Source: a virus
Direction: 5' to 3' (one strand)
Length of the DNA stretch: 64,000 bases
IMG/VR virus record: IMGVR_UViG_3300044608_002890
Shown: positions 4,686 through 8,700 of the stretch, one piece after another
Layout: each line of letters opens with the position of its first letter
How positions within the stretch are numbered: position 1 is the stretch's first letter
Notes under the pieces: model-generated
Told to the model about the DNA's origin: nothing
Seen by the model: only the letters and a program-made list of their open reading frames with translations
The model's database searches: none
Made by a program: the position numbers and the translations under genes

Positions 4686-4889
4686 ATGGCAAAATTTTCT
4701 TATAACGATTTAAGTGTAGCCTACATGTTGCTCTGCTTGGCCAAGCAACGTGAAGCCTTTAAACCCGAAGAGCAAGCAGGCGTTGACGAATGCATCGTCA
4801 AGCTCTATGAATTTTTAGATGTTCTTAAAAAAGATGTCGAAGGTCGGACCGTGATGTTTGACAATCTCGAACCTTCGGAAGAAGATTAA
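4686..4889 (+). CDS. Hypothetical protein (67 aa)
   Basis: ORF fills the gap before the convergent gene. Confidence 0.55.
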   Translation: MAKFSYNDLSVAYMLLCLAKQREAFKPEEQAGVDECIVKLYEFLDVLKKDVEGRTVMFDNLEPSEED

Positions 4890-6523
4890 TAACTCGCTAC
4901 ACGATCTAGGTAGCGAGTCAAGGTACTGGCTTCAGGTCTAATCTGAGGCTTCAATGGTATAATTCCCGATTGCTGTGGTTGCGGAGCTGCCTGAGAACTA
5001 TTGTTGTTTATGACAGTTGTACCTCCAGTTCCTTCGGCCTGCATGTCGCGATTGGCCGTGCTATAGGCCTGCATGACACTACCAGATTGACTGGGCGATG
5101 TGGGACTGAGGTTGGCAGTTGCTGGTTCTGCACCAGCAAGCGAAGTTTTTGTACCAATGTCACCAACTGTTGCAGCTTTGCCAGACATGAGCTTGCTGGC
5201 CATGGAATTTTCTTTGTTACCTGTAACACCGTATTTTTCTTTGGTGGCCTGATATTCCTTTTCAGAAACTTCTTGACCATTGATATAGTACTTACCGTCG
5301 GCATACATGCCTTCTATCTTACCCTGTGGACTAGCTACTGAAAAACTACCTGTCTTATTGGTTTGTATGTTGTTTTCTATTTTATTACTATTGCCGCCAA
5401 AGAAATTACTGATCCTGCCGCCTATGTTGCCTACGGCTTCGCCTATGCTTCCGCCAGCCATGTAGCCCAAAGCACCACCAGCTAGCCCTCCAACCACAGT
5501 TCCTGCGGGTCCAAAGAAGCTGCCGAAACTAGCACCGACCTTAGCGCCTGCAATGGCACCACCGGCTCGACCTACGCCACCACCAATGCCTTCGCCTTTG
5601 GTTATGGTGGCTTTTTTATCGGCTTCTTCTACCTTCTTGTTGTATTCGGCCTGAGATATTTCTCCGGACTTGAGCTGGTCCTGTGCAGCCATGACTTCGG
5701 CTTGCTTTTCGTTGCTGGCCTGTCCATATTTTTCATAGGCAAACATGCCGCCACCTATGGCACCAGTTACGCCAGCTGCTACTAGGCCGCCTTTGCCGCC
5801 CATGAACTTGGCTGCTTTGCTTAAAAATCCTCCACCAGCTGCTGGACTGGGTTTTGGAGCTGGAGCGCCCACCGTAGGTTTACGGTTAAGTACATCAGGC
5901 AAAATCTCAGCCGCAGCACCCAACAGAGTGCTGCCTGTGCTAGGAGCTTCGGCAGCCTGTGCTTCGGCTGGCTTCTGTTCGTCAAAACTTACTTTGCCTG
6001 CAGTGGATTTTACAGGACCACCGGCAGCCGGTGTAGATATCTGTGGTTTAACAAAGGTACCAGTAATGGCATCTCGGTATACACTGCCACGTCCCTTCTT
6101 TTCAAATTTTAGACTGCCTTCGGTTATTTTTCTTAGCAATGTAATTTCGCCAAGAACTTTCTGAAGTATGTCATTGTTGGCATTATAAACTTTGAGCAGT
6201 TTATCGGTATTGTCTTTGCCGGTCTTTTCTTTGGCTACTTTGGCCGATGCCTTGGGACCGGATTCAGGGGGTTTCAATGGCTTGGAAGCATCATCAGATG
6301 CTTCGAGACCACCTTTCCACCAGGTATTGAGATTGCCCAGAATGTCCTTGCCGGCCTGAGCAAATACTTCACGCGTGCCCATGGCCTTCACAGGCACACC
6401 TTCTATGAACTTCTCATAGCCTTCGGGCAACTGTCCCTGATTCTGTATGGGCCTGGCCTGCACGCCCAGCATGTTTTTGAACATGCCAGGCAAAGCATCG
6501 GCTGGTTTGGTCTTTTTTGCCAT
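4886..6523 (-). CDS. Tape-measure-like / baseplate hub protein (gp29 analogue)
   Basis: 545 aa, Ala/Gly-rich helical segments (GAIAGAKVGASFGSFFGPAGTVVGG); last gene of the gp54-gp26-gp51 operon; length similar to T4 gp29. Confidence 0.55.
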   Translation of the reverse strand: MAKKTKPADALPGMFKNMLGVQARPIQNQGQLPEGYEKFIEGVPVKAMGTREVFAQAGKDILGNLNTWWKGGLEASDDASKPLKPPESGPKASAKVAKEKTGKDNTDKLLKVYNANNDILQKVLGEITLLRKITEGSLKFEKKGRGSVYRDAITGTFVKPQISTPAAGGPVKSTAGKVSFDEQKPAEAQAAEAPSTGSTLLGAAAEILPDVLNRKPTVGAPAPKPSPAAGGGFLSKAAKFMGGKGGLVAAGVTGAIGGGMFAYEKYGQASNEKQAEVMAAQDQLKSGEISQAEYNKKVEEADKKATITKGEGIGGGVGRAGGAIAGAKVGASFGSFFGPAGTVVGGLAGGALGYMAGGSIGEAVGNIGGRISNFFGGNSNKIENNIQTNKTGSFSVASPQGKIEGMYADGKYYINGQEVSEKEYQATKEKYGVTGNKENSMASKLMSGKAATVGDIGTKTSLAGAEPATANLSPTSPSQSGSVMQAYSTANRDMQAEGTGGTTVINNNSSQAAPQPQQSGIIPLKPQIRPEASTLTRYLDRVASY

Positions 6524-7119
6524 TAGATTGGTCTACGAACAGTTGGACGAGGCATGCCATCTTCTCTGGGGGCTACAGGAGCTGCTACTGCACCCGCAGG
6601 CTCTGACAAGGGCATGTTGCTACCAGGATCAGCATAACTTACTGGTTGTGGTCTAGGTGCCATGTTTTGTTGCATGTTTTGTTGAGCAGGCATAATACCT
6701 CCAGATATCATTCCCGACGGAGGAGTTGGACTTGGAGTAAACTTAGGTGGCTCTGAACTCAAAGTTGGTGTTGCTACACCACCGGCTGCGCCAGCAATCT
6801 TTTCCTGTGTACGACCAAAAGCGCTAACACCCAGTACCGCACCCATAGCTACGTGGAACAAACCGCCGCCCTGCAAGGTAATTGGAACCCATTGGCGAAA
6901 GGCATCATTAGCTGCTTGTGTTTCCCAGAACTGTACAATAGTAAACATCACAGGAAATATGGCAAAATCAGCCAAACAGCAAAGCATATACATCATGGCC
7001 ATCATGGGACGCCATTTTTTGGTCATCCAATCCTCTTTGGCTTCATTGCCAGGGATTAATTTAGAATCTTCTTCTTTGGTTTCTTCGACCTTGGGTTCTT
7101 CTTTTTTCTTACCGAACAT
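6523..7119 (-). CDS. Holin of the 3TM gene-transfer-agent release type, with Pro-rich tail
   Basis: WMTKKWRPMMAMMYM...FP...W.P.TLQGGGLFHVAMGAVLGVSAFGRTQEK motif. Confidence 0.75.
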   Translation of the reverse strand: MFGKKKEEPKVEETKEEDSKLIPGNEAKEDWMTKKWRPMMAMMYMLCCLADFAIFPVMFTIVQFWETQAANDAFRQWVPITLQGGGLFHVAMGAVLGVSAFGRTQEKIAGAAGGVATPTLSSEPPKFTPSPTPPSGMISGGIMPAQQNMQQNMAPRPQPVSYADPGSNMPLSEPAGAVAAPVAPREDGMPRPTVRRPI

Positions 7120-7120
7120 C

Positions 7121-7288
7121 TCATGCTCCCTGTTGTGCTATGCGCCTCATGTTGGCTTTTTGGTTTTCTTCTTGTATATGTAACATCAGTAAATCAATGT
7201 ATACGGCCCGTTCCCAGGGCATCATGTTTTCAAGTACTGCTAGATCATAACCATGAAATTGCATCAAAGCAAAGTTTGAGCGAAACAT
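7121..7288 (-). CDS. gp51: Baseplate hub assembly catalyst (55 aa; absent from the ORF track)
   Basis: Hand translation MFRSNFALMQFHGYDLAVLENMMPWERAVYIDLL...; NFALMQ and ENMMPWER motifs; directly downstream of gp26. Confidence 0.8.
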   Translation of the reverse strand: MFRSNFALMQFHGYDLAVLENMMPWERAVYIDLLMLHIQEENQKANMRRIAQQGA

Positions 7289-7314
7289 GTTTTCTAAACT
7301 TTCCTGGGCCAGGC

Positions 7315-8010
7315 CTAGACGAAAAAATTGTCTAGACCCTCTAATTTTAATTCGTGATGCTTTTTACAGCTCGGACAATCCGTGACAACATCTAGGACTA
7401 CTCTGGGCATGGTGCTAAAAAAGCTCATCAACTTTTCTAACTGCTTGGTGTTAAGTTGTTCTATGAAGTTCACCATTTCTTCTCGAGTGCTTTCACGGGC
7501 ATCGTAAAATTCATTGTCCTGATGTACGCCTACGATGCAGTCACATAAAAGATCAATCACCTTATCAGCATCAGTGCTTAGATATGCTTCAAGACCTTCG
7601 TCCAGATGCGGATACCGCATGTCTATGGCAACACTTCTGGATAATGCTATGCGATTCTGGTGACCTTCGCTGTTAATAATCTTGGCTGAACCCAGATTTG
7701 TCTGTGTTTCAATTTTAGTACCACACTCACAATTTACTATGAGATCTAAAACTTCGCCTATGCTGGCTTTTCTGAGTTCTATGAACAAATGCACAAGATC
7801 AAAGAAAGCCAGTTGATCTATCTTAAGTTTATTGAATGTGCAATTATCAACAACTTCACTGACAATTCGGGTTATGTCTTTGCTCTCGGCATCTTTGAGC
7901 ATCAACAATACTTTGTGCTCCTTGACTAAAAATGGTCTGTATTTTACGGGTTTTCGTGTACTGGGTACAATGGTTTCATATGTCGGCACTTCAAGTACTG
8001 GTAAAGGCAT
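7315..8010 (-). CDS. gp26: Baseplate hub assembly chaperone
   Basis: MPLPVLEVPTYE..VPST.K.VKYRPFLVKEHKVLL, DLVHLFIELRKASIGE, CxC and CPSC motifs, ends GLDNFFV. Confidence 0.9.
   Translation of the reverse strand: MPLPVLEVPTYETIVPSTRKPVKYRPFLVKEHKVLLMLKDAESKDITRIVSEVVDNCTFNKLKIDQLAFFDLVHLFIELRKASIGEVLDLIVNCECGTKIETQTNLGSAKIINSEGHQNRIALSRSVAIDMRYPHLDEGLEAYLSTDADKVIDLLCDCIVGVHQDNEFYDARESTREEMVNFIEQLNTKQLEKLMSFFSTMPRVVLDVVTDCPSCKKHHELKLEGLDNFFV
7321..7327 (-). promoter_or_regulatory. Putative -1 ribosomal frameshift heptamer T TTT TTC
   Basis: Minus strand reads GAC AAT TTT TTC GTC TAG; the -1 frame is open into gp51. Confidence 0.65.
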
Positions 8011-8016
8011 GATATT

Positions 8017-8700
8017 TTAGGCTCCTGCTCCTAGAGAATTAAAGGTTCCTGCTCCAAGTTCTTGATTTACATCTCCAGTGATGGTGGCAAAATTCGGTGG
8101 ATCAGTAGGTATAATGCTGTTTCTATCCAAACTATTTCTGTTGGTATTCACACCGTATCTGGGCTCACCTTCGTACCAGCGTCTAAATCTGAAATTCACT
8201 TGTAAGAGATGAAAGGCATTCTGTATGCCATGATTTAGATCCAGTTGAGTCTGTGTTGCAGGAAATGCTTCTTCGAGTGTTATGGTGTAGACTTCGTTGT
8301 CCTGATCGTCAAGCTGTGTAATGTTTACAAAAGGAGCAATGTAGTCTTGCTGATAGCTTACAGTGTATTGGCGACCATCGACTATGCTCTGCATCCATCG
8401 ATCAAAAAGTTTTTTCACACGCATGTCTTGATCTACATGAAAAGCCAGCATCATGAATCCGCCATAGTTTATGCTTTTGGGTCTGTGTATGGCTGGACCC
8501 CAGCTACTGAAAACTTCGGCATTGATGTTGAGTTCAGGAAATACTGCACTTTCGGCCATGAGGCTCAGTGCCTGATTGCTATAATCCAGCCCTTCTAATA
8601 CCCGTGGTGGAGCAGCCAATAGTACTTCGAAACGATTTTTGCGAGCCAGACCAGTTTCGGCTACAGTGGATCTAAAATTCTCTATGCTGAAAGCGGCCAT
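8017..8700 (-). CDS. gp54: Baseplate tail-tube initiator (tube-protein fold)
   Basis: GLARKNRFEV, FDRWMQ, QLDDQD...YTITLEEAFP, VNFRFRRW; synteny. Confidence 0.75.
   Translation of the reverse strand: MAAFSIENFRSTVAETGLARKNRFEVLLAAPPRVLEGLDYSNQALSLMAESAVFPELNINAEVFSSWGPAIHRPKSINYGGFMMLAFHVDQDMRVKKLFDRWMQSIVDGRQYTVSYQQDYIAPFVNITQLDDQDNEVYTITLEEAFPATQTQLDLNHGIQNAFHLLQVNFRFRRWYEGEPRYGVNTNRNSLDRNSIIPTDPPNFATITGDVNQELGAGTFNSLGAGA

Follow-up and report, generated by a model that had tools for sequence, protein, structure and literature searches.

The junction between the gp26-like and gp51-like reading frames of an uncultured marine T4-like phage is very probably a programmed -1 ribosomal frameshift site, at which one gene would give rise to two products: a 231-aa gp26 and a longer protein that carries a gp51-like domain at its C-terminus. 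The junction lies in a stretch of 64,000 nucleotides (IMG/VR record IMGVR_UViG_3300044608_002890, analysed as a whole and called the window here), and all of the window features described are on the minus strand. The gp26-like ORF ends GAG GGT CTA GAC AAT TTT TTC GTC TAG. A preliminary description had proposed a frameshift from this ending, and the features on which the proposal depends are as follows.

7315..8010, minus strand: gp26-like baseplate hub / hub-assembly chaperone gene, 231 aa (PF12322, E 3.2e-55; phrog_150, E 6e-59)
7337..7341, minus strand: SD-like GAGGG (codons Glu-Gly), a candidate 5' stimulator; GAGG ends 10 nt before the heptamer
7321..7327, minus strand: slippery heptamer T TTT TTC (X XXY YYZ, in phase; codons TTT 7326-7324 and TTC 7323-7321)
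7293..7319, minus strand: weak downstream hairpin, 10 bp, interrupted, starting 1 nt past the heptamer (z +0.64, not significant)
7121..7327, minus strand: -1 extension with the gp51-like domain, 68 codons (FF + 66 new residues), matching phrog_634 (E 2.9e-21) and ending at TGA 7123..7121
7286..7288, minus strand: ATG of a 55-aa "gp51" stub, the gene-caller start, at codon 13 after the slip and inside the conserved domain

The heptamer is in the phase that had been claimed for it (7327..7321), and the 0-frame stop TAG follows one codon past it (7317..7315). The -1 frame reads FF-RLGLAQESLEN-M... and is open from the slip site to TGA 7123..7121, so that a fusion of 230 + 66 = 296 aa is predicted beside the 231-aa gp26, the two sizes given at the outset. 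The 55-aa ORF that begins at ATG 7288 matches phrog_634, "baseplate hub assembly catalyst", and the closest AGGA to this ATG is indeed 13 nt upstream. When the 13 pre-ATG codons are added, the phrog_634 score rises from 64 to 77 bits and the start of the match moves from profile position 69 back to 56. The residues LAQESLEN, which the preliminary description had likened to the N-terminal part of gp51 homologues, are therefore part of the gp51 family. All three profiles (PF12322, phrog_150 and phrog_634) are matched significantly.

In the proposed mechanism, ribosomes translating the gp26-like gene would reach U UUU UUC with tRNA-Phe in both the P and A sites. A fraction would slip back one base (UUU UUC to UUU UUU) and read on through the gp51-like domain to make the 296-aa fusion; the remaining ribosomes would terminate two codons later and release the 231-aa gp26. 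Stimulation is likely to come from the SD-like GAGG, which ends 10 nt before the heptamer, and from the 0-frame stop one codon past it; in a cyanophage-like clade a stem-loop 4-5 nt downstream may contribute as well. By analogy with lambda G/GT or P2 E/E+E', the gp26 part common to both products would be a module resembling tail assembly chaperones, with the tape measure and the hub as its targets, and the -1 extension would add gp51 activity in a fixed low ratio. The slip, its efficiency and the protein partners of both products are what we infer here; the signals in the sequence, how well they are conserved, the homology to T4 and the similarity in fold are observed.

Much of the evidence comes from relatives: 120 IMG/VR loci collected by means of the gp26 protein and a gp26 alignment, plus GenBank relatives of five lineages. 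The sequence NNT TTT TT(C/T/A) is found in phase at 113 of 115 distinct junctions (27-66% protein identity), although these junctions are related by descent and the counts given here are thus non-independent trials. Neighbouring codons drift synonymously (GAA/GAG, GGN, CTA/TTA/CTG, CAA/CAG) and the heptamer survives, which is the outcome that the alignment of gp26 3' ends suggested in the preliminary description had been meant to look for. The residue before the two phenylalanines varies (N, S, D, H, A), yet its codon ends in T throughout: AAT, AGT, TCT, GAT, CAT or GCT. Elsewhere in gp26, T is the last base in only 59% of the codons for Ser and 32% of those for Ala. Repeated amino-acid replacements before FF that keep the T show that selection acts on the nucleotide. 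The first Phe codon of the heptamer is TTT in 110/110 junctions, the second is TTC in 100/110 (vs 25% of Phe codons elsewhere in gp26), and the 0-frame stop is one codon past the heptamer in 101/110. Part of this nucleotide conservation is protein-level, since the FF motif and the upstream Glu-Gly pair are themselves conserved residues.

The two exceptions to the heptamer are Ackermannviridae (L045:1989-2165 and L046:1920-2105), in which gp26 ends GAG ATT TTC ATT TAA, without a canonical heptamer; their gp51-like peptide is still in the -1 frame, within an unannotated gap of ~500 nt. The same out-of-frame arrangement as in the window recurs in over 100 independent assemblies, and cultured phages of several families have it too: Kyanoviridae, Emdodecavirus, Schizotequatrovirus, Chrysonvirus and the pelagiphage Mosig. 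In Mosig the heptamer is present and the 0-frame stop is mutated (TAG to TTG), which leaves gp26 8 codons longer. Five complete or near-complete heptamer-bearing genomes have one PF12322 gene each, and there is likewise a single gp26 place in each of the 944 phage records matched by tblastn. The best 120 gp26 homologues are every one 229-239 aa long, and a word-based search for longer proteins gave no in-frame fused relatives. Three database proteins (P0201, P0121 and P0133) have the gp26 C-end and the gp51 part in a single frame, and may be natural fusions or the result of homopolymer sequencing errors.

U UUU UUC is not known to be an especially efficient slip site in bacteria. The related U_UUU_UUA and U_UUU_UUU are far less shift-prone in E. 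coli than A_AAA_AAG (2016 review, PMC5009743). Among the candidate stimulators, the upstream element shows a codon bias of its own: the Glu codon that forms the SD-like sequence is GAG in 76/98 relatives vs 29% GAG elsewhere in gp26. The SD-like element of E. coli dnaX is likewise spaced 10 nt from its heptamer, as in the window. Such SD-like 5' stimulators are a major feature of dnaX -1 frameshifting (PMC5009743).

On the downstream side, the picture differs between the window and one group of its relatives. A downstream RNA stimulator in the window was considered and rejected, as 7320..7250 folds no better than shuffled sequences; no covariation of two candidate hairpins was found in the window's clade, and RNAalifold over all clades gave no consensus structure. 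A further hairpin at 7311-7343 (minus strand; 9-10 bp, GGGTCTAGAC / GTCTAGGCC) holds the heptamer in its loop and is probably incidental, as relatives have not kept it. A 12-bp stem of the cyanophage-like clade, beginning 4-5 nt past the heptamer, has compensatory changes at 10/12 pairs; its covariation score was reached by 0/500 shuffles and is above all slid controls. When 11 positions of the locus were compared across clades, mean folding z was lowest (-1.5) for the 55 nt past the slip site.

The -1 frame is always open across relatives, as a frameshift had been predicted to leave it. Its peptide is conserved from the slip site onward (FF-R-x-x-L-S-H-x-S-L...), including the residues before the window's ATG, which are conserved as protein. 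A PWER motif is found at residue 36 of the -1 peptide in nearly all relatives, and this constant position means that the extension is without indels. Taken as sequence, the -1 part is under purifying selection.

Three other explanations of the junction have to be weighed. One, which we regard as highly improbable, is that there is no recoding at all: gp26 and a small gp51 would be separate proteins, the latter starting at ATG 7288 or another available codon, perhaps by termination-reinitiation after the gp26 stop, and the T-run would be kept only by the FF motif and by AT-rich genomes. ATG 7288 with its AGGA is there in the window, codon 5 after the T-run is an ATG in 47/110 relatives, GenBank annotators call such gp51 stubs, and TTT is the preferred Phe codon (75%). 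Given ATG 7288 and a codon-5 ATG in about half of relatives, a free gp51 stub could also be made. As for gp51 being made only from ATG 7288 or a CTG, which the preliminary description had named as a way for its proposal to fail, many relatives are without a start codon for an independent gp51. The first ATG is at codon 4, 5, 6, 8, 13 (the window), 16, 20 or 21, or there is none; an ATG lies upstream in the -1 ORF in 3/110 only. No ATG precedes codon 16 in 48/110 junctions, and in 35/110 ATG, GTG and TTG are all absent from that stretch, yet the peptide is conserved there and codons 3-15 of the 48 ATG-less junctions have, for the three codon positions of the -1 frame, entropies of 0.94, 0.79 and 1.43, a periodicity which indicates that the start-less stretch is translated. 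Nor is the start position conserved among database stubs: a search with the extension profile found 2094 database proteins, almost all of them stubs of 46-100 aa, and these begin at profile positions 1, 5, 6, 7, 10, 13, 17 and 22, a scatter to be expected because gene callers take any available start. (In the GenBank records of S-WAM1, ACG-2014d and Mosig, L049 to L051, the gp51 part is unannotated or a 44-aa stub.) Protein selection, moreover, cannot explain a third-position T that is invariant over five amino acids and two Ser codon families, nor the minority codon TTC at the second Phe, nor GAG over GAA. Finally, the extension can function within one protein alongside a gp26-type domain, as T4 gp51 shows.

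The second explanation is transcriptional slippage: RNA polymerase would insert one additional U at the T6 run, and a transcript of this kind, translated normally, would give the same fusion. The homopolymer is present and some relatives have T7-T8; as the products are identical, sequence analysis cannot fully separate this from a ribosomal slip. Still, we think it very unlikely. Known bacterial cases need runs of about 9 A or T (PMC5009743), the run here is held at 6 T and then C in 91% of relatives rather than lengthened, and three features, GAGG at a distance of 10 nt, a 0-frame stop next to the site and, in one clade, a covarying stem, are of the kind that stimulates ribosomal frameshifting. 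The last explanation is that the junction is an artefact or in decay, through a homopolymer sequencing or assembly error or a frameshift-broken pseudogene 51. Homopolymer runs are error-prone, and a few database proteins (P0201 and P0121 among them) do read both parts in one frame. Against this, the arrangement is shared by those many independent assemblies and by cultured phages of several families, and its -1 part is conserved by purifying selection; these comparisons of sequence effectively refute this explanation, to which we attach almost no probability. Programmed ribosomal frameshifting is the reading followed below.

T4 itself offers a natural point of comparison. The preliminary description had called the junction a switch in a T4-like phage; this would apply to non-Teven T4-like phages and fails for T4, where genes 26 and 51 are adjacent and divergently transcribed, so that no frameshift can join them. 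That the two are treated as separate genes in T4 had been stated correctly: they are separate paralogous genes on opposite strands. In T4 gp51 (249 aa), residues 1-201 make up a complete PF12322 domain (E 4e-52) and the tail beyond it matches phrog_634; T4 gp26 (208 aa) has the PF12322 domain alone. Since gp51 is a gp26-type domain with an in-frame tail, the short and the long form each have a gene of their own in T4, and these genes are paralogues. Residues 200-244 of T4 gp51 align with the -1 extension of the window, starting at the exact junction, where F-R-L in the window is matched by F-K-L in T4 gp51. T4 gp26 ends GLKEFFELL, and the same GL-x-x-FF motif precedes the window's slip site; the corresponding junction in T4 gp51 is without a T-run (GTG TTT AAG). 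Both T4 proteins are listed as hub assembly chaperones, and gp51 is described as essential, of unknown function and absent from particles (Leiman et al., 2010, PMC3004832, Table 2 for the listing). Both are homologous to the window gene through PF12322, and the difference lies in the arrangement: two paralogous genes on opposite strands in T4, one gene and a frameshift in the window and most other T4-like lineages. The frameshift state is the more widespread of the two, and which of them is ancestral is a matter of inference.

A DNA-level search against GenBank phages gave essentially no match for the window; at the protein level (tblastn), its gp26 gene reaches no more than 38% identity with cultured phages, for the most part cyanomyoviruses, and the nearest relative of the -1 extension is that of Pelagibacter phage Mosig (62%). 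The gene order is gp4, gp2, tube-like, gp26, gp51 part, three-TM protein and 545-aa Gly-rich protein, and is common to S-RIM44, phiM12 and Mosig. The neighbours that matter for the comparison with other tail assembly genes are these.

8017..8700, minus strand: tail-tube-like protein, 227 aa, upstream of gp26 (phrog_3629, E 1e-27; phrog_45 "tail tube", E 1e-25)
6523..7119, minus strand: three-TM protein, 198 aa, the downstream neighbour (PF11351 GTA_holin_3TM, E 1.7e-5)
4886..6523, minus strand: 545-aa Gly-rich protein, putative tape measure (gp29 counterpart), from position, length and Gly-zipper hydrophobic segments

The gp26 gene therefore has a profile-supported tube-like gene upstream and, past the intervening three-TM gene, a tape-measure-like gene downstream. 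The 545-aa gene is tape-measure-like in position, length and composition; its phrog matches are weak only, a Pfam search gave no match and so no tape-measure family, and its syntenic counterpart in phiM12 carries the annotation "similarity to phage tape measure proteins". The three-TM protein (6523-7119) separates the gp51 part from the tape-measure-like gene; instead of a lysis holin, it may be a membrane protein of the tail module.

The fold of gp26 was approached through an AlphaFold model (pLDDT 87.8). Neither Foldseek with the full model against the PDB nor a gp26 sequence profile against the PDB found a significant match. An exhaustive structural aligner placed residues 1-90 of the full model closest to 3fgx (Z 7.2), 2ob9 (Z 7.0) and 3klu (Z 6.7), with the next match at Z 4.8; a Z of about 7 is below the level that this aligner regards as safe. 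When the N-domain was folded alone, the same three came first (2ob9, Z 7.1 over 82 residues; 3fgx, Z 7.0; 3klu, Z 6.3; next Z 4.4). The top matches span 81-85 residues, most of the N-domain. Of these structures, 2ob9 is the HK97 tail assembly chaperone and 3klu is YqbN, an XkdN-type tail chaperone of a PBSX-like prophage. Beyond the gp26 family, BFVD gave weaker matches, several of them named "tail assembly chaperone" and one "pre-tape measure frameshift protein G". The matches are moderate, but they stand clear of the rest and are functionally coherent, and the modelled structure suggests that the shared N-part has a chaperone fold.

The proposal that gp26 and gp51 are a G/GT pair gains support from the architecture of T4 gp51, from this N-domain match and, less firmly, from the tube-like and tape-measure-like flanks. 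As in lambda gpG/gpGT, the gene would encode an assembly protein absent from the virion, with a -1 slip at an X XXY YYZ heptamer only a few codons ahead of its stop, and it lies between a tube-like gene and a putative tape measure gene; the short product is predicted to be abundant and the long one to share its N-part and add a C-domain, and the window's N-domain model resembles the solved HK97 chaperone (Z 7.1). P2 E/E+E' also slips on a T-run (T TTT TTG). There are differences as well. The window family, PF12322, is without sequence similarity to the known chaperone families; the short product is larger (231 aa) and has extra domains whose four Cys form CxxC-like pairs, the extension, at 66 aa, is short, a three-TM gene separates the chaperone gene from the tape-measure-like gene, and the known role of the T4 homologues is in baseplate hub assembly, not tube initiation. 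E. coli dnaX (A AAA AAG) shares the SD-like 5' element, the nearby stop and a 3' stem-loop (here in some clades), whereas its shifted product is the shorter one, made at an efficiency of about 50%, and the shifted product here is longer.

The -1 frameshift of tail assembly chaperone genes is conserved (Levin 1993; Xu, Hendrix and Duda 2004, 2013, 2014, as cited in PMC5009743), and G-T frameshifting has been described as conserved in long-tailed phages "except T4" (2016 review, Atkins et al., PMC5009743). A search of open-access papers and preprints found no report of a gp26-gp51 frameshift. The arrangement is seen in cyanomyoviruses, pelagimyophages, phiM12-like, KVP40-like and Aeromonas phages, and on balance we favour a wider reading of it, held with less confidence than the frameshift itself: gp26/gp51 would be the missing G/GT-equivalent pair of T4-likes, the frameshift would be ancestral and prevalent, a duplication in T-evens would have fixed the long form in frame as gene 51, and the hundreds of 40-80-aa "gp51" stubs in databases would be annotation artefacts of a true product that is a fusion of ~300 aa. 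Because T4 would make the same pair from genes 26 and 51, one reported gap would be filled and the "except T4" exception to the tail-chaperone -1 frameshift rule removed. If this is true, T4 gp26 and gp51 would acquire a concrete, testable role, after decades in which it has been unclear what they do in hub assembly; the annotation of gene 51 would be corrected in hundreds of ecologically important marine phage genomes, where it is an arbitrary-start stub or missing; and the two states would provide a natural comparison of recoding and gene duplication as answers to the same stoichiometry problem.

Two further observations concern the gp26 protein (7318-8010, minus strand). It has two Cys pairs, C-E-C-G (residues ~94-97) and C-P-S-C (~213-216), which suggests a zinc ribbon in its C-terminal half; the second pair is replaced by N-P-x-T-K in cyanophage-like relatives. 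There are also faint links to gp28: T4 gp26 (L044:3806-4429) has a weak match (E 9e-4) to phrog_1140, the "baseplate hub distal subunit" gp28, and the model of the gp26 N-domain matches a gp28-like protein (BFVD A0A482N3E3, E 2.5e-3), so gp28 may share the chaperone-like domain.
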